A DNA stretch of 59,562 nucleotides, counting the filler, from Dugesia japonica (Eukaryota), in NCBI GenBank assembly GCA_001938525.1. It is 5 parts of 5 records of this genome, joined end to end, with 100 filler letters (N's around TTAATTAATTAA, not from the genome) between each part and the next. Parts side by side here need not be neighbours in the genome. Positions count along the whole stretch, not along the records: positions 30,174 to 41,933 come from MQRL01509563.1; 4 more parts are not named here. One strand, given 5' to 3'. Made by a program: the position numbers and the translations under genes. This document shows, piece by piece, positions 14,511 through 56,966 of this stretch (the stretch's first letter is position 1; every line of letters starts with the position of its first letter). The notes beneath the pieces are model-generated. The model ran no database searches. It was not told the DNA's origin and was given only the letters and a program-made list of their open reading frames with translations.

Positions 14511-14778
14511 TCTGTTGTTGTTTCAATTTCTATTCAAGCAAGTTTAAATTTTTTTGTGATTGGTGATCTTTTTTTAAAATCTTATCTTTAAAAGAGAGAT
14601 TTAAATTATTGATGAAAAATTTAAATAAACAAATATTTGGTTTAAGGATAAATTAAAATTATTNAAATAAATTAAATTAATTTTAATAAATAAACTTTTA
14701 AAAGGAGTGAAAATTTTGACGGAAATTTTTAATAAAAATTAAGTAAACAAATAAAATGTTTTTTAAGTGAATTAAATA

Positions 14779-23200: not shown

Positions 23201-24687
23201 TTAATTATTTAAATTTTTATGATAAACCAGTCCTAAAAAACTAGTTAGTTGGATGGCCGCGACTGTAAACCACAATAAGTAACCGATTAATCCTTGGTAG
23301 AACATAGGAGTAAACACTGCTCTGAGACTGGATAATGATATGGACCATACTTCAACAGAATGATTAATTTCATCGCCAAAAATAGACGGTAAGAAAGTAT
23401 CACTAAAATTTGTAGATAAGTTGCTTGAGTTAACTTCAGAATTGTGAAATAATACACGGTTAGATCCTAACCAGCTTAAACCACTGAGAGATTTGTAGAG
23501 TAGTGTGACATTGAAACATAAAATAATGGGTGCAAAATACTGTAAGGCAACAAGACACAGGCAGTGAAAAATTCGAGCAACAATTTTTTGAAATTCAACA
23601 ATAGAAATTTTACCAGCTTCTTTTCTTAAAGCTTTAATTCGATTATCAGCTAGGTTTAAATAAGACTGTAAATGCATAGTGGACAGAAAAAATCTCAAAA
23701 TACAAAATGCTAAAGGTAAATAAATCTGCAATGCTAAAACATCATCGTATTTCAAAGTAGCAGTACCGAATTTAAGTGTAATTAAAAACTTTTGAACAGG
23801 GACTAACCAAAGACTTAAAATTGCTAAAGGAAATAGAAAAGAAAAATGTAGAACAAATAATTGGGCATTTGATTTAGAATCGTTAATTGCATCAATATAC
23901 ATTTTACCATATCGTAACCCAGAATGAGTGAAAATTCCACCAATAAATGCACTAAGCACTGCTAGCACACCTTTTATAGAAATCAAACTAATTGGACCAG
24001 AATTATCTGGGAAATTTTTAGTTATAGAATTTGTGAAATTTCTATAACCTTCTTCAATTTGAAAAGTCAAATGTTTTTCTGGTAAAATCAAAATCATCAT
24101 AGAAAAAACAAGAAATGAAAACGCAGACATTATAACAATCATTAAATCAGCAGTATCAGTCATAGTAAAATAAATCTTTGTTATATTAATCAAAGATTTT
24201 ATTGTGAAAGCGATTCCCAATATGCACCATAGAATACTTAAATTAACTTTAGCATTTGTACCTAATAAACACCCATAAACAAATTCATTTGAAAAAAAGA
24301 CTAAGGTAGAACAAAGCGAAAAGTCGATCAGCCATTGATAATCAGAGTAATAATGCAATTGAACTAAATCCTTAAATAGGACAGGAACTCGTCTCAAATC
24401 AATGGAAATTGATTTAGATATATTAACTGGAGCATTTTGATCTGAATAGTTTCGTTTATTTTTTCGATCTGAATATTTTAATTAATTTAACTAATTTAAG
24501 AATAAAATTTACTTTTATCTATCCTATTAATATTTGCAGCTTTCAGTATTTCATCTGCAGAAGGATAAACGTATCTAAATAAATTAAAGCAAAGAAGAAA
24601 TCTGGCAAATGACGTATAATTAATGACTTTAGACAAAATACTAGCACCCATTAGGGTAGAAACTAATTGAAACCCTAGAATCGCCAT
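23201..24687 (-). CDS. TMEM161: TMEM161 family membrane protein; exons 24513-24687 and 23201-24468 (480 aa)
   Basis: N-terminus MAILGFQLVSTL...SFARFLLC...RYVYPS, plus YQWLIDF, HLQSYLNLA...KEAGKI and ALQYFAP. Removing the GT..AG intron 24469-24512 (44 bp) joins the two ORFs in frame. Confidence 0.93.
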
Positions 24688-27559
24688 TAATTTTGAATAA
24701 ATAAATTCATTATAATTATTTAAACAAGAAATCTTTTTTAAGATTAATTTTTTACAAAAAACTAATTTCTTTAATTTCGATTGAAAGTTTTTATTATTTA
24801 ATCATAATCGGTTTTATTTATATTTGATAATTGATGAGTTGTCAAAAATAATTAGTTACTATTTGGAAAAATGATTGATTAAATTTTAATTATTAATTGA
24901 AAATGTATAAGGATTTGTCTTATTTTCTGAACATCAATCAAAAGCTNNNNNNNNNNNNNNNNNNNNNNNNNNNNNNNNNNNATACGGTTTAAACTTCAAA
25001 ACTTCACAACAATGAATTAGAGTTCAATCAAAATATATTTAATGCATAAAATTAGAATCCAGTGTGAAAATTTGCTCAATGAAACTTACTATAAATGCAA
25101 CCGATCTCAATCTGAAAATTGGTAAATACAAAATCAAATAGGGCATAAATATTAGAATATTATTAACCCATCAGTAACCGATCATATAATCAAAAGNNNN
25201 NNNNNNNNNNNNNNGTGCTAGCTTCTCTCAAAGCTTTTGTACTCGCCTTACTGTTTCTCAGAAAAAAATTGTTCTTGACACTTACATATAATTTCATAAA
25301 TACAAGTTTCTATAAATAAATGTTAATTAAAAATAAATTTACAATTTTAAATAATTCTTTTATAACCCCAATACAAGTGAGCCAGGAAAATGATTTTTAA
25401 AATAATTGGGAGATTAATACTAGAAAAAACCACTATATTATTAAAATATTTACGATTCAAAAATGTGTCATGGTACTACTTTAAAAAGTACTGTTTTATG
25501 CAATATGTTTTCACTGTCAGAACTAGAAAAATTTTTTTTCGATGTAATAACAAACCCCGACAGTTTAAAGACACTATGGTCTCAAAATTTAGGCTTTTTA
25601 AATTAATCAAATGATTATTTCAAATATAATACAAATGCAACACAGTTGTAAAGATTATGATACGACTGTTGAATATCTATGATGGAGCTTTCCTATTTCT
25701 TTTTATAAATCTTTTTCAATTTAGTATGGGATACGCATGGAACAACATGTAATAATCAAGTTTTCATAATCCTCCGCAAGAAAAATGGCAGTCATTTTGT
25801 ATATTGATTATTTTAGCTCATCGATTACTCAGTTTTAATTTTACCTTCTATAATTCAGTACTTTTTGGAGATACATTATCAATATTTAAATTTTTTAGAT
25901 GTATGCAAATTTAAAAGTAGCATTAGAATGAGAACAGTGTGTGAATACATGAATATGTAAATATAAAATAATGACGATAACCTTCAATAAAAACAATAAT
26001 AATTACTTTTAAAAATGTATAATAAGTAACAATAATACAGTCATATGACTTAACAATTATTAGTATAAACTTTGTTTAATTTTATTACCCTAGAGCGCCT
26101 AAGAATTTTGTATTTCAATAAAATTTTAAGGATAAGAAGCTACTTAATTACGCTCGTTTATATATTATTTTTGAGCTGGTAAATAGGNNNNNNNNNNNNN
26201 NNNNNNNNNNNNNNNNNNNNNNNNNNNNNNNNNNNNNNNCAAGTAAGATAAAAATTGTTGTTCTTCTATTTTATAAATTGTCCCATATTGCAGCTATCCC
26301 TTCTTATGGTATGAGACTCTATTGGTTTCTTATATCAAACTATATCAACATTTTATTGAAATTATATGAAAATAAATAATTTTGAAAAATTTCGACCAAT
26401 AAAATGAATAAAAATAATTATAAATATGCATTTAGTTATATTACCACAATATTTATTTAATTAGTTATTTTTGTTAATAGTGAATAAAATATGCTTCAAG
26501 TTAAAAGTTCTGATGTCAAAAATAAATTATCTCTGGAAGATTTACTAAACATGGCAACAGCGGTATATACCGATGCGATTACAGATAGATTATTTCCAAA
26601 TGTGTTCTATAGCGGAGATGGTATTGTAAAATTTATAAAGTTTTCTGAATTGTATTTGGATGCTTAAGGCATTGCACAGAAGAAATAACCTAAAAGATTA
26701 GTTTTTTGTTTGATAGTTGTCAATTTACTGGGAGAATATGTATAGACTTTGAAAAAGGTTAAAGGGTTTCTGGCTTGTTTATGTTTNGCAATTGAGAAAG
26801 ATAAAGATGTTGAAGATTTTTAAAATTTGATTAACCACAGGTATGAAAATAAAAAGATTGGAGTTAATTTTAAAAATATTAGAGATTTAGGAGAAACGTT
26901 ATTTTCAAATAAAAATTTTCAGAAGCATAAATGGATTAAAAATGAGGTGTCTAGCAGAAACGACAGAATATAGAAAAAATTCAAGAAACAATAATATTAG
27001 TTAATCAAATACAAAAAGAGATCAATTTGATACAGTTAGAAGTTACGCCAGAGTTACAAGTTGAAATAATTAGTTTGTCCAGATAAAAAACCAACAAAAC
27101 ATTTTCGTTGGTGAAAGGTGAACCATATTAGAAGGTTATGTCAAGAAGTGAGGTGAAAACGATATGGAAATGGGCCGACAAGTGCAACATCAATTTTAGA
27201 AATTTGTGACTGATAGAAGAACAAGAAACCAACCTAATCGAATACACGGGATTGCATATAAAGAAGTGAATACAAACAAATGATATTAGGAAGTATATGA
27301 AAGTAATTTCAAAACAAACTTGAAATTATTTACATTTAGTAAATGATGAATGACAATCGATAAAATTGTCAATTTGGTTGAGAAAAATTTTCTATTCACT
27401 TTCAATCCTTTAAAAACCATGATTCATTTGAAAAAATAAAAACTAAATATTATTAAGCCATTGTAACTAAACATTATTTTTAATTTGAATTCGAATTGTA
27501 AATAAAGGTTTTAAATCAACTAAATGAATATTTTACAAAAACCTTTCAAAGTAGTTTAA

Positions 27560-28507: not shown

Positions 28508-29190
28508 GTATATTTGAAAATATTTTCCCAATGAATTCAATTTCTGAATCACAAAGCGACGTAGAGTTTTTTTAATGGATCACAAATTATTTGATGTGAA
28601 CGACACTTTATTGTATATTAAAGTAAAGGTATTTGATAAATATGGAAAGGCAATGTCTGACACTCATGATGCGATTCTTAGTAACTATATGTAGCATACT
28701 TTTTTAGGATGTAATTCTTTTTTTGAAAGTGGAAATAGATTTTATATTCATAAAGCATTGATTAAAACTATAATAAATTATAATAGTGCATTAAACATAT
28801 CTGCCTCACAGCAATGGAATATGGACCAGAAGTAAAAAGAAAAAGATCTATTAAAATACCTGAAACATTGTCTATATGCAGTTCCTTTCGATTCAATTTC
28901 ATGGATCAGCCGAAATATCTTAATCCAGATATTACTTTTATCCAGATATTGCATTTCGAAATGGAGATCAATATAATGATAATTATAAAAGCTCTAGTTC
29001 AACAATTTATTGTAAGTAATATGGAATATTTGGATAAGAATCTAAATTGCGGAATAACACTTAGTGATTTTAAGAACAAATATCACTTCTTTGCATTTGC
29101 TTTAGCTCTAGACTTTGATATAAATCAGAATCAATTGCCTCAACAAAAGGATTTGAGATTGTATATAAAGTTTGCCAAATGTTTGTAAGT
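28508..29190 (+). pseudogene. Polinton major capsid protein remnant, family A, with internal deletions
   Basis: FPMNSISESQSDVEF..DVNDTLLYIKVKV, FMDQPKYL, FFAFALALD..LRLYIKFAK; clear DNA similarity to 30174-30743 and 41750-41933. Confidence 0.8.
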
Positions 29191-29229
29191 AAGCGTTTTT
29201 ATATTATTGATTTTTAATTTATTAGTTCT

Positions 29230-29545
29230 ATTCAGATTTATCGGATTAAATCAAAGTTGCTTAGATCATCATGGCTAAGTGTTTATGCANTAGATAAACT
29301 TTAAAATTATATTCCAGTAAATCAAGCGTTAATCGTCAATATATCGCATCTAGGTGGAGAACATTGGATATGTGTTTACAATAAACCTGCACAAATAATA
29401 ATATTTCATCCATTAGAATTTTATTACTTTTCAATGTTGGTGCATATTTATCGAAATTATCAAAACCAATAGTGTAATTAAAGTTCGATATCAAGATCCA
29501 TTTACAGAAACTTGTGAACAACACTATTTACTATGGTTGAAAAAC
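29230..29545 (+). pseudogene. Polinton cysteine protease remnant, family A
   Basis: HWICVYNK and QDPFTETCEQH fragments follow the MCP in the expected order. Confidence 0.5.
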
Positions 29546-30173: not shown

Positions 30174-30743
30174 TTCCAATGAATTCAATTTCTGAACCAA
30201 AAAGCGATGTAGAATTTTATATAAATGGATCTCAAACTGAATATTTGCATGTGAATGATACTTTCTTGTATATTAAACTGAAGGTAGGTGATAAGGCAGG
30301 CAAAGATTTGACTGACGCTCAATGATGCAGTTCCTAGTAACTATATGTTGCATACACTCTTTAAGGATGTAATTCTTTCATTTAATAATTACAANNNNNN
30401 NNNNNNNNNNNNNNNNNNNNNNNNNNNNNNNNNNNNNNNNNNNNNNNNNNNNNNNNNNNNNNNNNNTGGTGACAGTAAAAATATTTGTCTTACAGCAATG
30501 GGGTATGGATCGGACGATAATCGAAAAAATTCTATTAAAAAATCCAAAATTCTATTAAATTATCTAAAGCATTATCTTTATGTGGTTCATTGCAACTCGA
30601 TTTTATGGATCAACCGAAATATCTTATTCCTGGTGTCAATGTTCACATTCGATTGAAAAGAGCAACTTCTAACATTTGTTTGCAACCTGTAGTCCATGAA
30701 CCTAACTATGTATTGCCAGATGCAAAATTAATGGTTAGACGTG
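30174..30743 (+). pseudogene. Polinton major capsid gene, family A, 5' part (interrupted by the nested element)
   Basis: FPMNSISEPKSDVEFYINGSQTEYLHVNDTFLYIKLKV..SNYMLHTLFKDV..LDFMDQPKYLIPGVNVHIRLKR..DAKLMVRR, an F54H12.2-type Polinton MCP pattern; a few frameshifts. Confidence 0.85.
30738..30743. repeat. Left 6-bp target-site duplication GACGTG
   Basis: Identical hexamer at 41574-41579, immediately outside the other TIR. Confidence 0.95.
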
Positions 30744-31155
30744 AGTAGATGTAAAATAGCGCGATTAGGCCTGGACCCCCATAGCCATAAAATTTTGATA
30801 TTTTTTATGGCTGTCGATGCCGATTTGCAAACTGTGAAAAAGTGGTAAAAAAAAATAGTGAAAAGAGATAAAAATGATAAAAAATAACAAGATATTAAAA
30901 AGTTGAAAAAAGTTGAAAATATACCCAGGATTGTTTTTTACCCGTAATGATAAATAATGAAATTTTAAAATAAAAACTTGTTTATAAGCTAGGACCAAAT
31001 GTTTTTAGACAAAAATGCATGGACAAAAAATTATATTGAAATTTTAGTTTTGTTTGTAGCTTGTAGCTTGTAGCTTGTAGCTTGTAGCTTGTTGTTTGTT
31101 GTTTGTAGTTTGTAGTTTGTAGTTTGTAGTTTGTATTTTGTATTTGTATTTTGTA
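30744..31155 (+). repeat. Left terminal inverted repeat
   Basis: Reverse complement of ~41207-41573 with few differences; ends internally in (TGTAGCT/TGTAGTT)n 7-mers. Confidence 0.95.
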
Positions 31156-31178
31156 TAATAAAAATTAGTATGATTTAA

Positions 31179-33150
31179 TTAGTATCCAAATGGTAGAGTA
31201 GTTATTCCATCTTCTTTAATAAATCTTTTGTCATCAAATGAAGTTAATGCTTTTTTTAGTTGTTTAGTTTGTTTTACCTGATGAAGTTTAGAGTTGATTG
31301 AATAGTTTGTTCTGATATTATTGAATTGTTGTACAAAACATTTTTATATTGTTGTGCTGTAAAGTTGTTTGTATTACTTATTCCTTNNNNNNNNNNNNNN
31401 NNNNNNNNNNNNNNNNNNNNNNNNNNNNNNNNNNNNNNNNNNNNNNNNNNNNNNNNNNNNNNNNNNNNNNNNNNNNNNNNNNNNNNNNNNNNNNNNNNNN
31501 NNNNNNNNNNNNNNNNNNNNNNNNNNNNNNNNNNNNNNNNNTTCCAAGATTGATTTGGATGTATAAATTCAATCATTAGTGAATCTGTATCAGAGTAATG
31601 TATTCTCCATTGTTCTAAATTATTATCATTATCATTTGGAATTAATTTATTTAATTGATTATAAACAAAATCGTACATGATTAGTTTAGCATAATCTAGA
31701 ACAAAAAATCCAATGTATTGAAATTTATTGTACATGATCAAATGTTTAAATGTTTTTATTAGTGCTACTTCTTCATTAATTATAGTAGATGATTTATAAC
31801 CTGGTTTTGAAACTTGATTTAATATTTCCTTTTTAGTCTTTGCCAAGAATAAACTAATCCTATTTCTCACATTTTCAAGAGTCTTACCAAAGAATGCATT
31901 GTTTAATAGTTTGAAAAATGAATTTCCAAAGTCATCATTATTAACTTTTGCCTCATCTCTTGANNNNNNNNNNNNNNNNNNNNNNNNNNNNNNNNNNNNN
32001 NNNNNNNNNNNNNNNNNNNNNNNNNNNNNNNNNNNNNNNNNNNNNNNNNNNNNNAGATATAGATCCAAAACTTGTCCTAGAACTACATAATTATATTTAT
32101 TTTTCTGAGTCATTATTAACTTTTCATTGGTAGATTGTTTTTTATTCATGTATTTTAATAAATCTTTTTGATAATCACTCAAATCTTCATAACTGATTGA
32201 ATTTTTTTCTACAGCTAATGGATAATATTTAGTCTTTTCTTTAATATTGTCTGAATATATTAAATCAACTGTATAGATGTAATCCATATAAATCTTTTCT
32301 CCATCTTCATTAATTTTATAATCATCATTAGTTCTAACATAAGTTTTGTCATAATCCCAACTCATTTCACCCCAAGATAATCGTTTTGTCATCGATGCAG
32401 CATATAAACTATTCTCATCTAGGCATTTTAGTGTGGTAAATTCATTAGCTACTACATGTCTGTTTCCACATACTCCTGAAAATCCTCCTCTAATTCCTCG
32501 TTCTATAGTTAGAAACATGTCAAAGTTTTGAGGATTAGCATTTATTAATTTAACTTTTGATACTTTCATTCCTATTTCCCATGTAAGTCCTGGTGCAGAG
32601 TAACAATATGTTGGATCAATTTCATTCCAATCTAGTGATAAAGTCCTAAAGTTTTTGAAAAAGTCTGCTAGAATTATTACATCAAGTTTCATGTAATGTA
32701 GTGTATATTCCAAAAGATTGTTAAAATTTGAATAATCATTTAGAAATATTTGATAATCAGATTCAGATAGATTACTTTGTCTAAGTACATTGAAAAAATC
32801 TTCAATCTTTGGATTGTAGTTTATTAATTTTCTTTTAACTTTTGAATAATTATTTCCAGTTACATAATCATATGGATAGATTCCTTTTGATGCTTTTAGA
32901 TTAAAACTATCCAAATGAGGATGACTTTTACTTTTTGATAAATCTTGTCCCATCTTTTCAATTGAATGACCACTGCACATTCTTAATGAATCTAGAAATC
33001 TTAATCTTTTTAAAGAAAATGAAATGTAAACATCATCATTTAATGGAATTAGATTATTAATATCATTAGCATCTGATTTACACAATTCCTTAAAAACAAA
33101 ATGATTATCAAATTTTGAAGCATTATGAGCAGAAAATATCTATCAAAAAA
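31179..33150 (-). pseudogene. Protein-primed DNA polymerase B (exonuclease II through C-terminus), disrupted
   Basis: AHNASKFD (ExoII), RFLDS, KGIYPYDY, YMKLDV, CLDENSLY (A), KLLNNAFFGKT (B) and YSDTDSL (C). A frameshift near 31310 leads into ...LTSFDDKRF...TLPFGY* (stop at 31179). Confidence 0.93.
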
Positions 33151-33153
33151 TAT

Positions 33154-33678
33154 CTATCCATAAACTGGTATGAAATGCTTCTTTGGAGATTCAAATTTCT
33201 TGATACATTCAAGATGAGCATATCCTCTACTAGCTCCTGTCCATGGATTTACTGATAAATAATCACATTGTGGTTTATTTAAATCAAAGTTCCTAGTTTT
33301 GGAAAATTTATAAATAAAATAAATACATAATATTCCACAAATTTTAGTTTTCCAAGGTTGAACTTGTCTCCTATTCCATTTTACTCCTCCTCTTGACATG
33401 ATTGATTTTAATGGAGGTAGTCCATAGGAATCAAAATAATAACTTGTACCTTTGACAGGTTTAATATATGCAACCCAATGACTATCTTTTTGATTTGAAT
33501 TTTGATAGTTGATTATCCAGTTTACAATTGACTGGGTTGTCCAGTTAACTGAAAACTCATTGTTCATTACCACATAAACATTTAAATTTAAAAATTTAGC
33601 AATATCTAATAAATCATAATTAGTTGTAGATGATATGCCAAATGTTTTGAGAAAGTCGAGTACGTTGTAATTATCCAT
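33154..33678 (-). CDS. Adenain-type cysteine protease with a pPolB-derived C-terminal extension
   Basis: HWVAY, YYFDSYGLPP and Q...CGILC catalytic motifs intact; tail PWTGASRGYAHLEC...FIPVY resembles the pPolB segment preceding ExoII. Confidence 0.88.
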   Translation of the reverse strand: MDNYNVLDFLKTFGISSTTNYDLLDIAKFLNLNVYVVMNNEFSVNWTTQSIVNWIINYQNSNQKDSHWVAYIKPVKGTSYYFDSYGLPPLKSIMSRGGVKWNRRQVQPWKTKICGILCIYFIYKFSKTRNFDLNKPQCDYLSVNPWTGASRGYAHLECIKKFESPKKHFIPVYG

Positions 33679-33699
33679 TCCATTTTTATTCAAATCAAT

Positions 33700-34385
33700 T
33701 TAATTGAACCTTCTCAAATGCAATAAGATATTAATCTTTTCTCCATCAAAATCTATTGTATTAAAATTCTCATCTACTATATTTAATTTTATTCTAGAAA
33801 TAAAATCTGTATTAATNTNTGAATAANNTGGATTAGCTGGTCTATCAGTTATCCTATATCCATAAGGAACTGTTCCCATTGGCAAACTATGTAATAAATT
33901 GTATTCTTTATTATTTATATAATTACCTTGTACAATGTTGCAAATAATATTAATTTTATTATCTGAAATGAATTTATCCAACTTGGTCAGTAGATAGCCA
34001 ATAGGTAAAACATTAAATCCAAGAATAGTATGAAAAAAGAAGTATTTTCAAATTCAAGCTTAACTCGTTCAATTGGTTTATCTTTATCATTAATATATAA
34101 TTGGATTAAAGCTTTACCTGTTGATACATCAAAACTTAATNNNNNNNNNNNNNNNNNNNNNNNNNNNNNNNNNNNNNNNNNNNNNNNNNNATAAGCACCA
34201 GGAGTTATTATTTTTTCTATACCATCTAGTTTATATTTATTATTTTTATTATTTATATTCAAAACCATGTTGGATGTAGTGAACCATATTAAAGCTATTT
34301 CCCATCTCCCTTCTAATTTTAAACCTATTGATAATTTAGTTTCTAATTCATGTTCTTGACCAAATATTAAAAATTGATGAGACAT
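33700..34385 (-). CDS. Minor capsid protein (penton), split by a 1-nt frameshift
   Basis: WEIAL...ITPGAY and IICNIV...VPYGYRI..P...IVDENFNTIDF...LLHLRR. One extra T in the homopolymer at 34033-34038 gives SFFHTILGF and joins the two ORFs, matching SFFHKILGF in the homolog at 57.3 kb. Confidence 0.85.
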
Positions 34386-34386
34386 T

Positions 34387-34482
34387 AAACCGAGCGAACG
34401 TAGTGAGTGAGGTTTCTATAAAGCAATTTATTATAGATTTTATTTGAAAGTAGATGAAAAAGCACTCGCTGCGCTCGCGCTT
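34387..34482. other. Two GNA-triloop / tandem-GA hairpins in an intergenic spacer
   Basis: AAACC-GA-GC-GA-AC-GTA-GT-GA-GT-GA-GGTTT on + (34387-34415) and AAGCGC-GA-GC-GCA-GC-GA-GTGCTT on - (34460-34482). Confidence 0.65.
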
Positions 34483-35314
34483 ATTTTAAGTATTTATTTT
34501 TTAACCTAGAATACTTTTCTTTAGTTATTAATTTATCATCCAACAGTTGTTTAATTATTTTATTAAAATCAGTTGAAAGATTATCATGTCCAGCTTTTAT
34601 TGCATTAGTTATTATTAAAAACTTTTCCAACAACTTTATTGGGTTAATACCATCTCCTTTCTTTACAATTTCTTTATATTTGGGTGAATTTTTAAATTTT
34701 TTAAATTCTTGATCAAATATTCCATCTTTTTTACATGTACGGATGTAATTACTTGAATGTGGGGTGAAATTACTAAATAATTTTAAATAAATTTTTTTAG
34801 CTTCACTATTATTAGATCCATAAACAAACATTAAATTTAATACTTCTTGATTAAAAGGTATTTCTTTAACTAATCCAGATTGGTTATCAAATGCAAAATA
34901 TTTTAACTTTTCACCATTTACAATTTTTTCTTTTAAATAAATAATATCTTTACCAATTTTAAAACAATCAAAATTTTCTTCATCATTTTCAATAATATAA
35001 GGAATTAAACTAGGAGGTAAATCATATTTACTACAAACTTTAAAATCTTCTTTTTTCAATTTTATTCTACCATCTGAGATGAGATTATTAACTAGACTTT
35101 TAATAAGATCATCTTTATCTTCATCATTAAGATTATTAATAGAATCTTCTTTGATAGGTTCTTTGATAGGTTCTTTGATAGGTTCTTTGATAGATTCTTT
35201 AGCTGAAAATTGGTTAGTAAAAGAAACTTGTTCAATTATTAATTTATCATATTTCTCTCTTGCTTTAATTTGATCTTTTAAAATTTTTATTCTATCTCCA
35301 ATCCAATCACTCAT
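34481..35314 (-). CDS. Conserved Polinton hypothetical protein (277 aa, EPIK repeats)
   Basis: Intact ORF; C-terminal GDGINP..LLEKF..I..AIKAGH motif typical of a Polinton accessory gene; syntenic homolog at 57641-58499. Confidence 0.75.
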   Translation of the reverse strand: MSDWIGDRIKILKDQIKAREKYDKLIIEQVSFTNQFSAKESIKEPIKEPIKEPIKEDSINNLNDEDKDDLIKSLVNNLISDGRIKLKKEDFKVCSKYDLPPSLIPYIIENDEENFDCFKIGKDIIYLKEKIVNGEKLKYFAFDNQSGLVKEIPFNQEVLNLMFVYGSNNSEAKKIYLKLFSNFTPHSSNYIRTCKKDGIFDQEFKKFKNSPKYKEIVKKGDGINPIKLLEKFLIITNAIKAGHDNLSTDFNKIIKQLLDDKLITKEKYSRLKNKYLK

Positions 35315-35320
35315 TTTTAT

Positions 35321-35914
35321 TTAAGCTTTATTTGAGTTGTAGGGATCATGATATGGATTCAAATATAATCCTTTACCACTAGGTATAATTTCTATTCCCT
35401 TTTTAAATTTCTTTTTATTTATTACTTTCAATCTACTTAACTGATCACTTAGTTCTCCCTTTAAATATTTATGAATAGCAGATCCTTGATAAGGATTTAA
35501 ATAAATTCCATGTCCACTTTGAGGAGGTTTATTATCAATTCCATTATCAATTCCATTATCACCTTGCTGTAACCGCTTTAATTGTTTAGTTAATAATTCA
35601 TTCTTTTTATCAATTCCAATAGATTCTTTAGCTTTATTATTAGCTTCACGTGAATTGGATACAACCTTTGCAATGCTAGCAGCTGCGCCACCTGCAGCTC
35701 CAATTCCTGCCAAAATACCAGGTATTAAAGCTAATAATGGAAATATACCACCAGAGTGGACACCATCATGTTCATATTCAGAGAGCTTTTGTTTTAATAT
35801 TTCTTTAGTCTTTTTTCCTATCCAATAGTTTTTGCCATTTATTTTTATTGATTTACTTTTATCACTATTTATTAAATCTATTAATTCTTTTTCAGTTGTG
35901 TTGCTGTTAGTCAT
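35321..35914 (-). CDS. PZ-like / adenovirus pX-like core or membrane-active precursor
   Basis: GG|IFPLLALIPGILAGIGAAGGAAASIAKVV amphipathic segment and repeated GxG(I/L)YLNPY motifs; homolog at 58511-59002. Confidence 0.8.
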   Translation of the reverse strand: MTNSNTTEKELIDLINSDKSKSIKINGKNYWIGKKTKEILKQKLSEYEHDGVHSGGIFPLLALIPGILAGIGAAGGAAASIAKVVSNSREANNKAKESIGIDKKNELLTKQLKRLQQGDNGIDNGIDNKPPQSGHGIYLNPYQGSAIHKYLKGELSDQLSRLKVINKKKFKKGIEIIPSGKGLYLNPYHDPYNSNKA

Positions 35915-35939
35915 TTATTTATTAATATAATAATTGGGT

Positions 35940-36710
35940 TTAAAACAAGGAATCTACCAACATTTCCTTTTCCTTGTCTAGATAAAAATAATTATATTTT
36001 GTTTTCCAATGATGATTAGTTTCAAAGTCATATTCTTCTTTACTATTAAAAATGTTGCTAAATAAATCATGATAAACATTATCTTTATCTCTTTTACCTA
36101 GTTTAAAGAAGATGAAACAATTACTATTATTTCTTATAGAATTCTTATCCAAATCATAATAAGTTTGAGATATATAAATTACATTACAATTATTATGTCT
36201 TCCTCTAGTAAAATAAGATTTCTGTATTGATTGATTCTTCTCATTTACTACATCATCAAAAATAATTAAATTCTTTTTATTAGCAGGTAACTTATCACAT
36301 GGAACAATTTCAGATGCTTTAGAAGATAGAGTAATGTTTATAGATTCTCGATTAACAGATTCCAAACTACCCAGTTGAGATGAATACCAAAAGATTATTT
36401 CTTGAGGATTTAAATCTTTGGGAATTCTATCTTGTATTTCATCTGAAAAAATATTAATCAATTCTTGTTTACTCAAACCTTGAGTTAGACCATGATATAA
36501 TAATTGAATTTCAAATTGGTTAATAGTAGTTGAAAAGATGATTAAATTATTATAATCTATAAAACCTGGTGTTAGTAAAATCTTTAGTAGTAAAACATTT
36601 TTCCCACATCCTGATGATCCAATAATTAAACATCTAAACTGTGGAGGAAATATTTCATGTTTAAATTTACTTGCTGAATTTTTCCAAATAGGTGTTACTC
36701 TAGTTGCCAT
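35940..36710 (-). CDS. A32-like (FtsK/HerA) genome-packaging ATPase
   Basis: Walker A GSSGCGKN, Walker B LIIFDD, RGRH, ISQ and IRNN motifs; probable start is the MATR ATG at 36710, with an upstream ATG at 36740. Confidence 0.93.
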   Translation of the reverse strand: MATRVTPIWKNSASKFKHEIFPPQFRCLIIGSSGCGKNVLLLKILLTPGFIDYNNLIIFSTTINQFEIQLLYHGLTQGLSKQELINIFSDEIQDRIPKDLNPQEIIFWYSSQLGSLESVNRESINITLSSKASEIVPCDKLPANKKNLIIFDDVVNEKNQSIQKSYFTRGRHNNCNVIYISQTYYDLDKNSIRNNSNCFIFFKLGKRDKDNVYHDLFSNIFNSKEEYDFETNHHWKTKYNYFYLDKEKEMLVDSLF

Positions 36711-36745
36711 TTTATTATAGATTAATTTTCCAGCTAACATAAAAA

Positions 36746-36940
36746 TTATTTCGTGATTAAATTCATCAACAACATGTTTGTCATCATAGTCTGATTTGCA
36801 ACCATCATGTCACGATTAAATGATTCTTCCTCTTCTTTACTCATGTAAGTAGAAGTATCAGTAGTTAACCATTTCCATAATCCATCTGGTTTAGTTTTGG
36901 GTTTATCTTTATCAACTGGTTTATCTTGTGTATTTCCCAT
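36746..36940 (-). CDS. Small hypothetical protein (64 aa, MGNTQ start)
   Basis: Fills the gap between the integrase and ATPase genes, co-oriented, with an A-rich start context. Confidence 0.6.
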   Translation of the reverse strand: MGNTQDKPVDKDKPKTKPDGLWKWLTTDTSTYMSKEEEESFNRDMMVANQTMMTNMLLMNLITK

Positions 36941-36972
36941 TATTATTATTTTATTAATTTAAAATTTAAAAT

Positions 36973-38408
36973 TTATAAATTAGTCAACTGGAGCTCATTG
37001 GCATAAAATCTACCTAATATTTTATCTCCATCTTTATTCAAAATACCATAAGTTAATACTCCATCCCATGGTTGTGATGTATTATTTTCTCTATAGATTT
37101 TATAAATTGTATAAATATCTCTTGTCCAATTTATTGTATATCCTTTTTCAAACTTGTCTTTAAATCTAAAAATTCTAACTCTTTGCCCAATCTTTAGTTT
37201 CTTACTAGTTGGATTCTTAAAGTCTTTATTTTTAAGATTCCATTTGACTGTTTTATCTTGTAATCCATATGGACTGTGGCTAGCTTCTTTTGGTGTTTTA
37301 TTAATTGAACTATGAACTGTATTATTATAATCATCAACTATAGAATTTAATAAATCAATATCCCATTTTTGATTATCTTGTTTAGTAAAAATTTTGTATA
37401 ATCTTCTTTTAAATGTTCTAATTACTCGCTCTACAAAAACTGCTTTACCCCTAAGTTCTGTATTTAATGGAGTAGAATATAAATTAATATTATTATCTTC
37501 ACAAAACTCTTGAAAAACTTTATTATAAAATTCTCTTCCATGATCTACNNNNNNNNNNNNNNNNNNNNNNNNNNNNNNNNNNNNNNNNNNNNNNNNNNNN
37601 NNNNNNNNNNNNNNNNNNNNNNNNNNNNNNNNNNNNNNNNNNNNNNNNNNNNNNNNNNNNNNNNNNNNNNNNNNNNNNNNNNNNNNNNNNNNNNNNNNNN
37701 NNNNNNNNNNNNNNNNNNNNNNNNNNNNCCTTTAGGTGAACCTAAAAACATTAAATCAGCTGACCAAGTTTCATCTTTAAAGAATAATTTAACTTTTAGA
37801 AAGTTTTTATTTTTATTAAAAGGTTTATGTAACTCGTTAGCCTGTAATTCATCCTCTACAGTTAACTGGATACCACTTCCCATCATTATATTTCCCTTCA
37901 TTGCTAATTTAACTAATCCTCTTTGAATCTTTTCTGAAGTAGAAGGATTTTCTATATTATTTAAATCATGAATTAAATTAACATCAGCTATATGTCTATC
38001 TCTAACATCTTCTGAATTATAACTAATATCATGTTTTAAAGCAGCTTCATCTACCCTATTTACTGGTTCTTCACCTGGTTTTGGAACAAAGTTCTCATCC
38101 AGTCGAATATCCAATCTAGTTCCTGGCCCAGTATAATTATGTTTGAATAAATGTCTTTCACCAGGATATTTTTCTGTAGTAAAAGGTTTTAATAAAGCAC
38201 TTGTTACTTTGGAAGATTGAAGATCTCCTCCTTGAATCGATTGATCTCCTCCTTGAATCGATTGATGAATCGATTGAACAACAACTTGTTTTTTAAAATC
38301 TGTTGGCTCAACACCATACTTTTTTGAACATAGTTTATTATGTCTTACTCTATGTTTCTTTGATAAATATCTATTACATATTAAACACAATTCTTTTTCA
38401 TCAGGCAT
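36973..38408 (-). CDS. Zn-finger / parvovirus-type PLA2 / retroviral-like (rve) integrase polyprotein; spans a 180-N gap
   Basis: CLIC..H...C; NYTGPGT...VNRVDEAALKHDISY; ELHKP...WSADL (D). After the gap: VDHGREF (D), VERVIRTFK (E), YNNTVHSSI, FEKGYTINWT, GRFYANELQLTNL* (stop at 36973). Confidence 0.92.
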
Positions 38409-38433
38409 TTTATTAAATAAATTTTTTACTCAA

Positions 38434-39711
38434 CTAGGATCTAATCATTCTAACATCCTCACCTTTAATATTTTCTACATACATTACTTTACCATTTGAT
38501 ATTTTCAATTCAACATGTTTCTCTTGAAGTATTAACCAATACAAATTACCACTTAATTCAGAATCTTTAGTTATATGACATGTTAAATCTACATTATTTA
38601 CAGTTAATTTTTCATCTTGTGCTGAACAATCAAAACAGAATATCGGATAAAAACTCATCCAATCTTTAATACTTAATTGAGGTTTTGTATTAAAAGCATT
38701 ACACATTTCTAAATACATTTGATATGGAAACATTACTTGATTATTACCTACATCAAATTCCACTCTACTATTTGGGTAATAAACATTATTTAATTGTAAT
38801 TGAATACTTTTTATATAATAATTAAATGTTTTATCTTCTTCTGCCCCAGCTACTTTTACTTTCTTAACAACACTTCGTTTTAATGAAAATAAATTATTAT
38901 TATTCTTATATGAATTAATTAAATGTTTAAATCCAACAATTACAAATCTAGGTCTATATGGTAAATTACCCATTTTAATTGAAAAACTAGTTCCTGTATT
39001 CATTGAACAATTTCCCATCTCTCTTTCCAAGAATGAAGCTTGAATAGGTTTACCTGTTGATAATCTTTCTAAATAACTCAATTCAGATTTTGGTGATAAA
39101 GTCCATTCAGGTATATGTAATTCCAAAGCATCAATTTGAATTTCAACTTTATCATCTGTACTTCCATAAAAAATCTTTTCATTCATTATTTCCCTATTAC
39201 AATCTAATTGAATAAAAGTATTAAATAATATTCTATTATAGTTTTGTAAAAACCCAAACAGATTTCTTAAAGGATAATAACCTTCATAACTATTTAAATA
39301 TAATTCTTGTCTCTTGATTGAACTATCTTTAATAAAATCTGGAATCCATCCATATGCTTGATGAGATTTTTCATTAGCTTTATCTATCAAAACTAAGTTA
39401 ATCATTGTAGAGGCTACATCTGGATAAGTTAATGATTCAATATAAGTCGATCCTATTTTTAATCTCATCTGTGAAAATAAAGCTGGAAAGAAATCATTTT
39501 CCAATGTAGTAGTTGGTTTTATATTTTTAAAACTAATTCTAAAATACATTTTGCTATTTCCTAAATCTAAAGGATTAGTATTTTGTAATGATTGAAATGA
39601 AATATCCCCATTCTGGTTTAAATTTACTATTGATCCAGCTGTAGGAGATATTTTCAACAAATCACATTTTGTTTGATTGTGAATAAAGTTTACATTAAAA
39701 TCTAGATCCAT
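38434..39711 (-). CDS. Double jelly-roll major capsid protein, family B
   Basis: Intact 425-aa ORF with LFSQMRLKIG..IE, PLRNLFGF..Y.RI, PRFVIVGF, LNNVYYP and PIFCFDCS.Q, the Polinton PY/MCP pattern. Confidence 0.88.
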   Translation of the reverse strand: MDLDFNVNFIHNQTKCDLLKISPTAGSIVNLNQNGDISFQSLQNTNPLDLGNSKMYFRISFKNIKPTTTLENDFFPALFSQMRLKIGSTYIESLTYPDVASTMINLVLIDKANEKSHQAYGWIPDFIKDSSIKRQELYLNSYEGYYPLRNLFGFLQNYNRILFNTFIQLDCNREIMNEKIFYGSTDDKVEIQIDALELHIPEWTLSPKSELSYLERLSTGKPIQASFLEREMGNCSMNTGTSFSIKMGNLPYRPRFVIVGFKHLINSYKNNNNLFSLKRSVVKKVKVAGAEEDKTFNYYIKSIQLQLNNVYYPNSRVEFDVGNNQVMFPYQMYLEMCNAFNTKPQLSIKDWMSFYPIFCFDCSAQDEKLTVNNVDLTCHITKDSELSGNLYWLILQEKHVELKISNGKVMYVENIKGEDVRMIRS

Positions 39712-39744
39712 TTTCTTTAATCACCATTTGATCTAGCTAATAAA

Positions 39745-39999
39745 TTACTTTTCATTATTGTAAAAAGTTTTATTTATCCATTCTTTTATTAATACTCTAT
39801 AATTGTAAAGTATAATACAAATTACAACTATTATTAAAAAAATAATAATCATTTTATAAAATTTTACTTCAGCTTTTAAATTAACAACCATTAATTGATA
39901 TTTAGATTTATTATCTTGTTCATTTTTTAATAATTTTTCCATCCCCACACTTAAATCACTCAATATACTTGAATCACTTGTTATTTCCTTATTCTCCAT
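39745..39999 (-). CDS. Small coiled-coil plus single-transmembrane protein
   Basis: Hydrophobic run MIIIFLIIVVICIILY; co-oriented and tightly packed within the element. Confidence 0.65.
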   Translation of the reverse strand: MENKEITSDSSILSDLSVGMEKLLKNEQDNKSKYQLMVVNLKAEVKFYKMIIIFLIIVVICIILYNYRVLIKEWINKTFYNNEK

Positions 40000-40015
40000 T
40001 TCTTTTACTTATTTT

Positions 40016-40288
40016 TTAAGAAAGACTATTAAAAAACTTTTCATCATTTTTTAAACTTTTTTCTAAATGATTTTTAGTCTGTTCTTTCATTTTATTAATC
40101 TTTCTATTATAATGTTTAGTTTTATTTATTTCTTTAAGTCTATATACTTCTCGCAAATTTTTTATTTCTTCTTCAGAATTATAATATACATTTTTCTTTT
40201 TAACCTCCCTCTCATATGCTTCTTTATAACTACGAAAACTAATGTATAAATCACAAAAAGATTTTTTTATTTCTTCTTCACCTTCCAT
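40016..40288 (-). CDS. Small charged hypothetical protein (90 aa)
   Basis: ATG-initiated, co-oriented and tightly packed; K/E-rich. Confidence 0.6.
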   Translation of the reverse strand: MEGEEEIKKSFCDLYISFRSYKEAYEREVKKKNVYYNSEEEIKNLREVYRLKEINKTKHYNRKINKMKEQTKNHLEKSLKNDEKFFNSLS

Positions 40289-40382
40289 TTATTTCAATTG
40301 TTCTTCCAAATCATTAAACACTTTATTAATAAATGTTTTATCTTTTAAAATTGTTTCCATTTCCTAAAGAAACTTTTTAGAA

Positions 40383-41060
40383 TTATTTAAAATCAGAATT
40401 TAATTCTAATTGACTTTTACATCTACTTATATACCTATTATAAAATTTAGCTTCTCTTTCCCCATCATTATTATTATTAAAAACATATTCATGATTATTT
40501 TCATCTTCATTATTATTAACAAGAATTTCAGGTTTTGCTGCTCCACCTTTTATATCTTCCATATTTTTTCCAACAGATTTAAATAATCCTTTAAAGTTTT
40601 CAGGTCTAAGTTTAGGATAATTCTGTCTATCATTTAAACAATTTATTAGCTTCATTTTCATTTTATCACTATTTTCTTCAATCTTTTCTCTTTCTGTTTT
40701 CTTTTGTTTAATAGGTTTATATTCTANNNNNNNNNNNNNNNNNNNNNNNNNNNNNNNNNNNNNNNNNNNNNNNNNNNNNNNNNNNNNNNNNNNNNNNNNN
40801 NNNNNNNNNNNNNNTTTTTTCTTTTTAGCTTCAGGGATTAAATCCATTTTTCTTAATACAACATTCATTTCTCTTGTACTAACTCCAATCTTTTGGGATA
40901 ACTCACTTGGCTTTAAAGATAAATTTTTATCAATTATTTCCAAATATTTAGTTAATATAATTTTTTCTTTAATATTTAAATTACCACCATCTTTATTTAT
41001 ATCTATTTTATATTCAACCTCCATTTTATATAGAAAAAATTTAAGCTTTTGGTTTTCCAT
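40383..41060 (-). CDS. Putative helix-turn-helix DNA-binding protein (first gene of the element)
   Basis: LSLKPSELSQKIGVSTREMNVVLRKM fits an HTH pattern and is followed by a basic stretch; contains an N gap. Confidence 0.6.
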   Translation of the reverse strand: MENQKLKFFLYKMEVEYKIDINKDGGNLNIKEKIILTKYLEIIDKNLSLKPSELSQKIGVSTREMNVVLRKMDLIPEAKKKKXXXXXXXXXXXXXXXXXXXXXXXXXXXXXXEYKPIKQKKTEREKIEENSDKMKMKLINCLNDRQNYPKLRPENFKGLFKSVGKNMEDIKGGAAKPEILVNNNEDENNHEYVFNNNNDGEREAKFYNRYISRCKSQLELNSDFK

Positions 41061-41080
41061 TTTTTTTTACCCATATTCCA

Positions 41081-41170
41081 GCGACAAGTGACGACAAGTG
41101 GCGACAAGTAGCGACAGGTGGCGACAGGTGGCGACAAGTGACGACAAGTGACGAAAATTAGCGACAGCTG
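41081..41170. repeat. Nine tandem 10-bp units RCGACARGTG, candidate regulatory array
   Basis: gcgacaagtg/acgacaagtg/gcgacaggtg units located 20 bp upstream of the first ATG (41060), on this end only. Confidence 0.9.
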
Positions 41171-41206
41171 GCTAAACTAAGAAAACTAAGGAAAAAGTAA
41201 AAAAAA

Positions 41207-41573
41207 CTACAAAATACAAAATACAAACTACAAACTACAAGCTACAAGCTACAAGCTACAAGCTACAAGCTAAAACAAAACTAAAATTTCAATATAATTT
41301 TTTGTCCATGCATTTTTGTCTAAAAACATTTGGTCCTAGCTTATAAACAAGTTTTTATTTTAAAATTTCATTATTTATCATTACGGGTAAAAAACAATCC
41401 TGGGTATATTTTCAACTTTTTAATATCTTGTTATTTTTTATCATTTTTATCTCTTTTCACTATTTTTTTTACCACTTTTTCACAGTTTGCAAATCGGCAT
41501 CGACAACCATAAAAAATATCAAAATTTTATGGCTATGGGGGTCTAGGCCTAATCGCGCTATTTTACATCTACT
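41207..41573 (-). repeat. Right terminal inverted repeat
   Basis: Reverse complement of the left TIR; ends ...TTTTACATCTACT. Confidence 0.95.
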
Positions 41574-41933
41574 GACGTGTACGCGTTGAACCTTCAGTAT
41601 TTGCTGGTCATCAATTAGGATTAAATAAGAAAAATGCAATTTATCCAATAAGAAAGAAGGAAATTGTTGCGTTTGCAATTAGTAAAGATAGTACATCATT
41701 TTATAAGGAGCAAATATTTGGCGATCGTCGTTTACCCAACTTTCTTTTAATTGGATTTCAAAATGGAGATCAATATAATGGTAGTTATAAAGCATCAACT
41801 TCAACATTTAAACATTTAAATGCTACTTCCATATCTTTATCGAAAAACATTGATTATCAAGAGACATATATTCAAGATTTTCAAAACGACGATTATAGTA
41901 CAACATATATGCAAAGTGTTGTTCGAAATATGG
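41574..41933 (+). pseudogene. Polinton major capsid gene, family A, 3' continuation after the nested element (begins with the TSD)
   Basis: RVRVEPSVFAGHQLGLNKKNAIYPIRKKEIVAFAI...QIFGDRRLPNFLLIGFQNGDQYNGSY, in frame with DAKLMVR on the left flank. Confidence 0.9.
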
Positions 41934-52806: not shown

Positions 52807-53418
52807 CTAGAACAAATCATCTAACATTTCATCTGTCTCTTTGTTTACATAAAAATAATTATACTTTGTTTTCCAATGAAGATTTACCTCATAATCATAT
52901 TCTGTTTTGTTAGTGAAAATATTTGAAAATAATTCATGATACACATTGTCTCTATCTGTTTTATTTAGTTTAAAGAAAGTGTAACAATTTAAATTATTCC
53001 TTACAGAATTTTTATCGAGATGATAATATGTTTGGGAAATATAAATTACATTACAGTTTGAATGTCTTCCAAGTATGAAATACCTTTTTTGAATCTCTTG
53101 ATTTTTCTCATTAACAACATCATCAAATATTATTAAGTTTATTGGAACTATATTTTGATTTTCAAACATTAAAATAATTTCTTGTTTAGTTAACCCATTT
53201 TCAAAACCAATGTAAAGTAATTGAAGTTCAAATTGATTGATTGTTGTTGAATAAAAAATTAAAACATCATAACCTAAAAATTCTGGAGTTAATAACATTT
53301 TCATTAATAAAAAATTTTTCCCACAACCTGATGAACCTGTCATTAAAAGTCTAAAATTATTCGGCAATACTTTAATATTAAAAGTTGTTAAATTTTTATT
53401 CCAGATATACGAAGCCAT
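52807..53418 (-). CDS. Packaging ATPase with internal deletion
   Basis: GSSGCGKN, LIIFDDVVNEKNQ and LGRH; lacks ~50 aa relative to 35940-36710. Confidence 0.85.
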   Translation of the reverse strand: MASYIWNKNLTTFNIKVLPNNFRLLMTGSSGCGKNFLLMKMLLTPEFLGYDVLIFYSTTINQFELQLLYIGFENGLTKQEIILMFENQNIVPINLIIFDDVVNEKNQEIQKRYFILGRHSNCNVIYISQTYYHLDKNSVRNNLNCYTFFKLNKTDRDNVYHELFSNIFTNKTEYDYEVNLHWKTKYNYFYVNKETDEMLDDLF

Positions 53419-53554
53419 TTTTTATATGTTAAATTTTAGGCCATGCATGGCCCACTTTTTATTTTACACTTTAGATTTTTCACTTTAGATTTCGGGCCAC
53501 GCCTGGCCCACTTTTCACTTTAGATTTTAGCATGGCCCACTTTTCACCGTTGGT

Positions 53555-54154
53555 TTACATTCCGAGTTTTGATTTCATTGCATTAATAACCTTTGTCTGA
53601 TTTTCAACTATAATTTTTAAACTTTCACTATTTTTCTTGTCCTTTTCTTTTTTATTACTAGATATCAACTCATGAACTTCATTTACCATATTTTTACTTG
53701 TCATCAATTCATCATCAGTTAAAATTTCATCATTGACGGCTTTCTGACGAAATAGAAATAATTTATTTTTAACAGCATCAAGTTTCTTAATTAACTTTTC
53801 ATATCTTTCCTTTTTAGATTTTATTAAAGATGAATTTAATGTTCCAATATCAGGCAACATGGAACTTGTGCCTGTCAATATCGGTATACCAATTGCTGAC
53901 AACAGTATTCCAACTGGTGCAATTAAAATTATACCTCCAATTCCAATTCCAACACTAACAATTATTTGTGTATATTTTATTGATGAGTCTATTCTTTCCC
54001 ATCTTCTATGTATTTTCTTATAATGTTTTATTTTATCTTTTATCAAGTAAAGGCCATTCTCAAAATCTTTTATTCTAGATAATACAAGTTTATTTTTTAA
54101 ATCTAAAATCGTATATTCTTCGTGTAAACTAGGATATAACTTTTCACTCTCCAT
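53555..54154 (-). CDS. Polinton membrane protein with a glycine-rich hydrophobic hairpin
   Basis: LYPSL N-terminus, helical region, IIVSVGIGIGGIILIAPVGILLSAIGIPIL and C-terminal AVND.ILT.DE; resembles a recurrent Polinton ORF (probably the one termed GasderminX in adintovirus annotations). Confidence 0.65.
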   Translation of the reverse strand: MESEKLYPSLHEEYTILDLKNKLVLSRIKDFENGLYLIKDKIKHYKKIHRRWERIDSSIKYTQIIVSVGIGIGGIILIAPVGILLSAIGIPILTGTSSMLPDIGTLNSSLIKSKKERYEKLIKKLDAVKNKLFLFRQKAVNDEILTDDELMTSKNMVNEVHELISSNKKEKDKKNSESLKIIVENQTKVINAMKSKLGM

Positions 54155-54156
54155 TT

Positions 54157-56531: not shown

Positions 56532-56551
56532 CAGTTTCTTAATAAACTAAT

Positions 56552-56959
56552 TTACCCAAGAGTGTCATATAAATTTTTCATTTCAGATATTATTTCATCA
56601 AACTTTTTTCAATTATTTATTGAATATAAAAAATAAATACACAAGATACCACAAATTTTTAAATCAAAATGTTGAACTTGAATTTTATTTTATTTCCTGG
56701 TAAATTTTTCAATTTGTTCAAAAGGTTTTAAACAAAAAGAGTCAAAATACTGCCCATTTGTGTAACATGTCCAATATGTTCCTTTTTGATTTGTATTTTG
56801 ATAATTAAAAATGTAATTTATTTCCTTTAATTTTTTAGGTATTTCATTTTTCATATAAATCTCTAACTGTATTTGTAAAAAGTCAGCAATAGCATATAAA
56901 TCAAAATTTGTTGTTGTGTTAATTCCAAATGTTCTCAAGAAATCAATTAAATTATACAT
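56552..56959 (-). pseudogene. Adenain-type protease pseudogene
   Basis: Homologous to 33154-33678; catalytic His replaced (GTYWT), two in-frame stops, then QVQ..KICGILCIYFLY. Confidence 0.85.
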
Positions 56960-56966
56960 CTGTTTC

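Follow-up and report, generated by a model that had tools for sequence, protein, structure and literature searches.

The locus described here raises the question of how one Polinton came to lie inside the capsid gene of another, and whether the site was chosen or simply hit. The window analysed comprises 59,562 nucleotides (filler included) from the Dugesia japonica assembly GCA_001938525.1 and consists of five segments, unlinked to one another and each about 10-18 kb long; the nest occupies the segment at 30174-41933 (MQRL01509563.1). We consider it quite probable that a Polinton bearing a phospholipase A2 (PLA2) entered the capsid gene of a distant Polinton by ordinary, untargeted integration, into a copy that was likely decaying.

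Architecture of the nest

The inner element, its borders and the two flanks are arranged as follows.

30174-30737, plus strand: outer-family major capsid pseudogene, 5' part (tblastn with P0001 and five other homologues; residues ~30-207; two further frame breaks)
30738-30743, plus strand: left copy of the 6-bp target-site duplication (sequence)
30744-41573: inner Polinton element, 10,830 bp, starting with AGTAG and ending with CTACT (sequence)
30744-31125, no strand: left terminal inverted repeat of the inner element (arm alignment; outer ~160 bp single-copy)
41204-41573, no strand: right terminal inverted repeat of the inner element (arm alignment)
41574-41579, plus strand: right copy of the 6-bp target-site duplication (sequence)
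41580-41933, plus strand: outer-family capsid pseudogene, 3' part (homologue residues ~209-326; the segment end cuts the gene)

An element of about 10.8 kb with AGTAG...CTACT repeats and a perfect 6-bp duplication had been proposed in the preliminary description, and these borders hold: the two hexamers are identical, and at the local base composition any identical hexamer pair would arise by chance with a probability of about 6e-4. The arms of the terminal inverted repeats (~380 bp) align over 382 columns with 95% identity, and the first ~300 columns contain two substitutions and two indels. In a tblastn comparison, residues 143-208 of the homologue P0001 (406 aa) align to 30545-30742 (76%) and residues 208-326 to 41576-41932 (80%). 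Since this register is consecutive on both sides, the flanks are consecutive halves of a single gene that is interrupted at the duplicated hexamer; alignments of five further homologues agree with this. Excision of the element together with one duplication copy thus rejoins the capsid gene, as had been claimed. The claim of a restored reading frame stands at the insertion site only, whereas the gene is broken in frame at two other places, near 30316-30325 and near 30545-30554. The segment ends inside the gene on both sides and covers residues ~30-326 of ~406.

The outer-family protein is predicted to be a double-jelly-roll major capsid protein, its fold model (P0001) matching the major capsid proteins of PBCV-1, SGIV and mavirus. 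In the fold library this family is matched best by a Cotesia bracovirus protein, at 24% identity, and a Pfam search did not recognise the family. An adenain protease adjoins the outer-family capsid gene (second copy at 28513-29539, and P0019), the same protease-next-to-capsid order that is described for vertebrate Mavericks in PMC8097293. That the interrupted gene is clearly unlike the capsid gene of the inner element was borne out: P0001 and the inner capsid protein gave no BLASTP match (best E 0.64), and their profiles align (96.7%) with 17% identity. The two capsid families are homologous yet distant, at ~17% identity. Neither the inner capsid protein nor P0001 found a relative in scans of viral contigs.

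The sequence layout confirms that both flanks lie in a single segment between spacers. This segment contains unread N stretches, but the reading frame is kept across five of the six long ones, so that it looks like one contig. Three features were absent from the preliminary description, namely the extra frame breaks of the outer gene, the deletion and breaks of the inner element, and these unread stretches. A check of the junctions in reads had also been suggested. Here, contigs from two other studies agree with the nest, although they stop short of formal bridging: the left junction is crossed by a 296-nt contig from X2 that extends 23 letters outside the inner element, against a bar of 31 letters, and on the right side a contig from X3 carries the four diagnostic differences of the right arm and the reverse-read duplication. 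Among contigs from DNA runs and long reads none was found to span the whole segment, the best DNA runs contain only 0.41 of the words sampled from the stretch, and no RNA dataset is listed as matching 38400-41933. These observations, and the origin of the interior from a multi-copy family, would suit an assembly chimera in which the nest, or the interior with its deletion, was put together wrongly out of collapsed repeats. We regard this as very improbable, given the matching duplication copies, the consecutive gene halves, the single-copy state of both arms, the contigs of X2 and X3 and the frame kept over most long N stretches; a chimeric interior is more possible than false junctions. That a Polinton of one family lies within the capsid gene of another family is supported as real.

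Gene content and damage of the inner element

All genes called in the inner element lie on the minus strand.

31182-33260: protein-primed DNA polymerase remnant (~560 codons missing at the N-terminus; frame broken near 33140-33155 and 31310)
33283-33678: adenain-type cysteine protease (Pfam PF00770, E 2e-4; homologues P0183 and P0184)
33700-34415: probable minor capsid gene, divided between two frames (46-48% identity to its segment-5 counterpart)
34481-35314: open reading frame (ORF), 277 aa (ORF call)
35321-35914: ORF, 197 aa, including a hydrophobic stretch rich in Gly and Ala (ORF call)
35940-36740: A32-type packaging ATPase (PF04665, E 6e-9)
36973-37865: probable retroviral-type integrase (weak matches: Pfam rve, E 0.07; PDB integrase, E 0.04)
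37866-38408: parvovirus-type PLA2 region, domain at 37911-38153 (PF08398, E 2e-9)
38434-39711: inner major capsid gene, 425 aa, open (PF21738, E 2e-21)
39745-41060: three small ORFs of 87, 90 and 225 aa (ORF calls)

We take 33700-34415 to be a minor capsid gene from its position and size, without a library match, and the ORF at 35321-35914 is presumably PZ/core-protein-like; 36973-37865 appears to share motifs with integrases. The two readable parts of the integrase, separated by an unread stretch, are not in frame with each other, part of the core lies in unread sequence, and the PLA2 frame runs open into the integrase N-terminus. An atlas search with this PLA2/integrase N-terminus gave no usable match, the integrase query found no match among phages, and a literature search with thin coverage of subscription papers found no PLA2-integrase fusion. 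The model of the inner capsid protein (pLDDT 84) has double-jelly-roll matches, none of them above 14% identity in the fold search.

Terminal inverted repeats, a 6-bp duplication, a family B polymerase, a double-jelly-roll capsid protein, an A32 ATPase and an adenain protease mark the element as a Polinton/Maverick. However, it is not an intact (autonomous) Maverick, because the N-terminal half of the polymerase is absent and the frames of the polymerase and the minor capsid gene are broken. All 70 full-length polymerase relatives (at least 1,100 aa) match the remaining C-terminal half, and in each the first match to the inner element falls at residue 431-831. The deletion may have arisen in place or in a helper-dependent ancestor. 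The last ~20 codons of the protease are replaced by polymerase-derived sequence, and 33154-33260, which is polymerase-derived, reads as the tail of the protease ORF. In a Pfam search the remaining polymerase pieces had no match to PF03175, a family matched by one of three polymerase relatives scanned. We also considered a compact natural virus of 10.8 kb and rejected it, since the search that recovers N-terminal polymerase regions from the segment-1 remnant recovers none from the inner element. The inner element is itself defective, and to call it a virus, as had been done, overstates an element whose polymerase gene is missing its first half.

Copy number, order of events and chance

The mean depth per contig of the outer capsid flank reaches 7,754-11,756, versus 6.2-8.1 for single-copy repeat-tip contigs. 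Taken from assembled-contig depth, which is not strictly a copy number, the outer family has roughly at least ~500-1,900 copies and the interior of the inner family at least ~20-90. Both inner-element arms are single-copy, and the repeat tip is so in three of three DNA runs (depth 10.9-16.2, bin 30784-30905). The terminal 26-mer of the inner element had no match in metagenome contigs, and within the window the terminal 18-mer occurs only at the two element ends and at one site with three mismatches. A tabulation of repeat copies had been proposed as a test of targeting; depth shows one tip copy, and neither the window nor the metagenome contigs contain a second site, so that there is one insertion (n=1), too few to gauge a preference in either direction. 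Polinton remnants occur in four of the five segments; if the inner element is set aside, they make up ~23% of the window with rough bounds. Chance alone would yield 0.03-3.2 nests if elements are taken to be 1.2-15 kb long and the DNA to total ~0.8 Gb, and only 0.03-0.26 for the capsid gene specifically. At such a copy number of the outer family, chance nesting is unremarkable.

The target copy itself offers hints on the order of events. In the left flank, nine of the 17 differences listed are near-fixed against the family (at least 1.8% of 498 called bases), seven of these nine at codon positions 1-2, whereas six of eight shared variants lie at codon position 3 (Fisher p 0.057). Divergence between the repeat arms is just 0.33% per arm (versus the flank, Fisher p 0.028), and such arms can be homogenised. 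These values do no more than suggest that the copy was already decaying before the insertion; the differences were selected by the tool (40 of 136 listed) and may mark a subfamily instead of decay. Frame breaks alone were rejected as a means of dating the insertion, as ~300 bp of arms hold two indels, as many as ~850 bp of flanks. An intact gene disabled by the insertion was likewise rejected in view of the other frame breaks. The earlier wording that the element disables its target is thus doubtful for an apparently decaying copy among hundreds to thousands.

Of the two alternatives first put forward, chance nesting agrees with the amplification of the outer family and the abundance of remnants, while preferential targeting finds no support in a single insertion. 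Targeted virus-on-virus parasitism would mean that the inner lineage prefers outer-family DNA and inactivates or rides it, possibly as a polymerase-defective satellite. The position in the middle of a capsid gene, with its low chance expectation, and the missing half of the inner polymerase are in its favour, and there is a precedent in type 1 Ngaros, 91% of which are located in EMALEs (PMC8547959). We nevertheless find it improbable: the repeat tip is present once, the target apparently decayed beforehand, the loss of one of 500 or more copies would matter little, and shared parts are doubtful for capsids that are 17% identical. Still less probable is a stronger version, in which a PLA2-fused integrase would steer a polymerase-defective satellite Polinton into the amplified second family, which would make it the first animal Polinton targeting another.

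A bias without sequence targeting, by which both families accumulate or survive in the same repeat-rich regions, is unlikely as well, if less so. It would fit the spread of remnants over the segments, the 18 of 29 EMALE sites near repeats (PMC8547959) and the frequent nested Polinton-like viruses (PLVs) and virophages of a protist (bioRxiv 10.64898/2026.07.28.741278). However, five unlinked segments of this size give no regional context.

Under the preferred reading of untargeted integration, a retroviral-type integrase would have made a 6-bp staggered cut, as is known for Polintons. The site would have been struck since outer-family DNA takes up an appreciable part of the genome. The insertion may be fairly recent, yet it would predate one arm mutation that separates the samples, and both elements are probably fossils now. 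For EMALE virophages, no sequence-specific integration was found (PMC8547959).

A tidy nest of two Polinton lineages by chance is most likely, and nested Polinton-like viruses are already known from a protist. The nest still provides a clean dated layer, in which the PLA2-bearing lineage integrated in the germline after the outer lineage had spread, and two distant Polinton lineages coexist in one animal genome. If targeting were shown, a Polinton integrase would be seen to choose its target, and viruses to be in conflict with one another within animal germlines. More promising as a lead is the apparent amplification of the outer family to many hundreds or thousands of copies.

Comparison with known systems

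As described in two surveys (PMC8097293; PMC8502044), animal Polintons/Mavericks resemble the inner element in having terminal inverted repeats that begin with AGT and measure a few hundred bp, the 6-bp duplication, and genes for a polymerase, an ATPase, a protease, a double-jelly-roll capsid protein and, probably in the present case as well, an integrase-like protein. Most genomic copies are degraded there, and the one-strand gene layout is found in an X. tropicalis element. In contrast, intact vertebrate elements measure 12.7-24.6 kb, against 10.8 kb with half of the polymerase missing here, and the inferred 500 or more copies of the outer family exceed the vertebrate maximum of 287 reported there. 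The virion module of Mayetiola-class (Alpha) adintoviruses carries PLA2X, and the inner element likewise has a parvovirus-type PLA2. Alpha adintoviruses are defined by a PF03175-type polymerase with an N-terminal OTU domain and by capsid clustering with Mayetiola cognates (PMC8502044). The inner element differs in that its PLA2 frame continues into the integrase N-terminus and its remaining polymerase piece does not match PF03175; the polymerase region that would carry an OTU domain is absent, and we do not class the element as Alpha.

A literature search with thin coverage of subscription papers found no animal Polinton inside another Polinton. In Halocafeteria seosinensis, five PLVs and nine virophages lie within other viral elements and are bordered by repeats and duplications, as in our case (bioRxiv 10.64898/2026.07.28.741278); that host is a protist with PLV and virophage lineages, whereas here two canonical Polinton lineages meet in a likely animal. 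Ngaros in the EMALE virophages of Cafeteria are also mobile elements inside an endogenous virus of the outer element's broad class, but their preference was measured over many insertions (91%, type 1), and the present case is one insertion by a different integration enzyme (PMC8547959). Maverick remnants in bracovirus proviral DNA, as reported in PMC2646287, likewise place a Maverick within another animal endogenous virus; the target is a polydnavirus segment in that case and another Polinton here.

A Polinton within a Polinton capsid gene

A Polinton that bears PLA2 and is now defective does sit nested in a capsid pseudogene, which belongs to a distantly related and apparently much amplified Polinton family. 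The inner element is flanked on both sides by an identical hexamer (chance about 6e-4), and its terminal inverted repeats, or arms, of about 380 bp each are 95% alike over the 382 columns of the arm-to-arm alignment. For the right flank, 20 relatives were found among 138 candidates, the majority with a length of 406-411 aa. In P0001, a natural 406-aa homologue of the outer capsid, residues 143-208 map to the left flank (30174-30743) and residues 208-326 to the right flank (41574-41933), the residue at the duplication being common to both; five further relatives map to the split gene in the same way. The fold model of P0001 (pLDDT 76) matches the major capsid proteins of PBCV-1, SGIV and mavirus, and Arthropoda and Nematoda are commonest among the atlas neighbours of this family. 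The capsid gene of the inner element is open, matches PF21738 and has the same predicted fold. BLASTP gave no match between the inner and outer capsid families, which are joined by profile alignment at 17% identity. The preliminary description had placed a Polinton within the capsid gene of a different Polinton family, and this is borne out by the boundaries, the hexamers, the consecutive halves and the distinct capsids.

Features of the window
30744-41573: inner element, 10,830 bp (from the sequence)
28513-29539 (+): second outer-family capsid fragment, then protease remnant (sequence comparison)
52807-59562 (-): second, decayed inner-family Polinton with ATPase (52% identical), protease, minor capsid, PZ-like gene and polymerase end
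8145-10313 (+): polymerase gene with breaks, from a further Polinton (relatives' matches)
23201-24801 (-): host TMEM161 gene, two long pieces
16749-19589 (-): 946-aa ORF without Pfam match
10585-15928: hAT- and Mos1-type transposase remnants

The window, five segments joined by spacers with a G+C content of about 25%, holds Polinton fragments, a TMEM161 gene and transposase remnants of the Mos1 and hAT types. Together with the atlas neighbours of the outer capsid family, this content suggests that the host is an animal. The second outer-family capsid copy is devoid of homologue residues ~174-265, the stretch holding the insertion site in the split copy. The decayed Polinton differs from the inner element in gene order and includes a 485-aa ORF made of ~580-bp repeats.

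Genes and state of the inner element

Every gene of the inner element is encoded on the minus strand, and together the genes take up 88% of its length. Read from the right end, the order is three small ORFs, then capsid, PLA2, a probable integrase, a small ORF and the ATPase, and after these an ORF that we take to be PZ-like, a 277-aa ORF, a probable minor capsid gene, protease and polymerase. Among 150 polymerase relatives, 70 comprise at least 1,100 aa, and all 70 first match the inner element at residue 431-831 (median about 564); no polymerase relative matched it above 33300. The polymerase remnant at 8145-10313 is matched from as early as residue ~90-190 and keeps N-terminal and endonuclease VII-like regions that are absent from the inner element. 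At the end of the protease ORF, ~33 codons resemble the part of the polymerase just before the first-match point (E 0.002-0.5 with 8 relatives), and alignments with free-standing protease relatives stop at 33283; therefore, a deletion fused the protease to mid-polymerase. Reading frames are broken in the polymerase and minor capsid genes, as well as across an unread part of the probable integrase. As it stands, the inner element cannot be an autonomous virus. The RNA run holds next to nothing on its compared part, and that sample may itself lack the insertion.

A single open frame (37731-38408, minus strand) takes in both the PLA2 domain and the N-terminus of the probable integrase, with a Gly-rich stretch linking the two. 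It could encode a natural precursor that is packaged and cleaved by the protease, or be the product of a lost stop codon; neither the protein atlas search nor the literature search, as far as the retrieved texts go, yielded a precedent. A tandem repeat with a 10-bp unit, 8 copies of which are in register, lies just inside the right arm (41071-41182). It is upstream of the first gene and possibly related to a promoter or origin.

Sequencing support, copy number and order of events

Three DNA runs from three studies (X1, X2 and X3) and one RNA run were compared over 30174-33816, about a third of the segment, and no record in them spans this whole interval. The preliminary description had proposed reads as a check on both junctions and on empty-site alleles. 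The left junction is crossed in X2 by a 296-nt contig (30721-31016, one difference) with 23 letters outside the element, below the bar of 31 letters for bridging. The right junction is inferred from an X3 contig which has the right arm's four diagnostic differences and whose alignment reaches the reverse-read duplication, with 45 further unaligned letters. X1, possibly the source sample, is identical to the left arm. The arm difference at 30811 is present in the window and X1 and absent from X2 and X3; there are therefore two or more alleles of the insertion. Of the RNA reads, 17 depart at 30743, their majority letters agreeing by eye with the right-flank start at 29 of 30 places, and because none of the 138 aligned RNA reads is at least 99% alike to the window, they represent uninterrupted sister copies rather than an allele of this locus with the site empty. 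The 138 reads, from other outer-family copies, lie nearly all on the flank 30174-30743, on both strands.

Summed depth was 1.8-8.2 x 10^5 in flank bins (30174-30661), about 900-9,600 in covered interior bins of the inner element and 10.9-16.2 in the outer part of the arm. As summed depth is not a copy number, mean depth per contig was taken as a floor (7,754-11,756 for the outer capsid flank versus 6.2-8.1 for arm contigs). By this floor, the outer capsid segment appears to be present in at least ~500-1,900 copies and the inner family in at least ~20-90. The arm tip is single-copy, which leaves this subfamily with a single site, too few for testing a preference.

Besides the insertion, the split capsid gene has two additional frame breaks. 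Among the 40 of 136 differences shown, as selected by the tool, 17 lie in the left flank; in each of the three DNA runs, 9 of these 17 are near-fixed relative to the family, which amounts to at least 1.8% of 498 bases. Seven of the 9 fall at codon positions 1-2, and position 3 holds most of the 8 shared left-flank variants (Fisher p 0.057). Between the arms there are 2 substitutions in 301 columns, or 0.33% per arm (p 0.028 versus the flank), one of them missing in X2 and X3. This suggests that the target copy was drifting before the insertion. The left-flank differences may instead mark a subfamily, and homogenisation can account for similar arms; moreover, the arms themselves have 2 indels, which speaks against earlier drift of the target.

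On the assumption that 40-90 insertions of the inner family share ~0.8 Gb of DNA with outer copies 1.2-15 kb long, 0.03-3.2 nests are expected by chance, and 0.03-0.26 within the capsid gene alone. Chance is a sufficient though not proven account of the nest, and insertion was most probably untargeted. A regional bias is improbable, and targeting of the outer family by the inner element somewhat more so; least credible is an assembly artefact.

Comparison with known systems

In the literature available to the search, no animal Polinton inside another Polinton was found, and nothing on nesting in the portions retrieved of 10.1101/2023.08.22.554363, 10.1101/2025.02.07.637071, PMC3671162 and PMC11296320. 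Polintons make 6-bp duplications and start with AGT or AG; in vertebrates they measure 12.7-24.6 kb when intact, and most copies are degraded (PMC8097293). The highest vertebrate count in that source is 287, less than the at least ~500-1,900 copies apparent for the outer family, which shares the order of capsid then protease with vertebrate Mavericks. PLA2 marks the Mayetiola-class virion module (PMC8502044). Viral elements nested in each other are reported to be frequent in Halocafeteria (10.64898/2026.07.28.741278), bracovirus DNA contains Maverick remnants (PMC2646287) and cryptophyte PLVs carry nested retrotransposons (PMC12220804). A true preference is documented for Ngaro, which favours endogenous virophages (EMALEs), themselves devoid of sequence-specific integration (PMC8547959).
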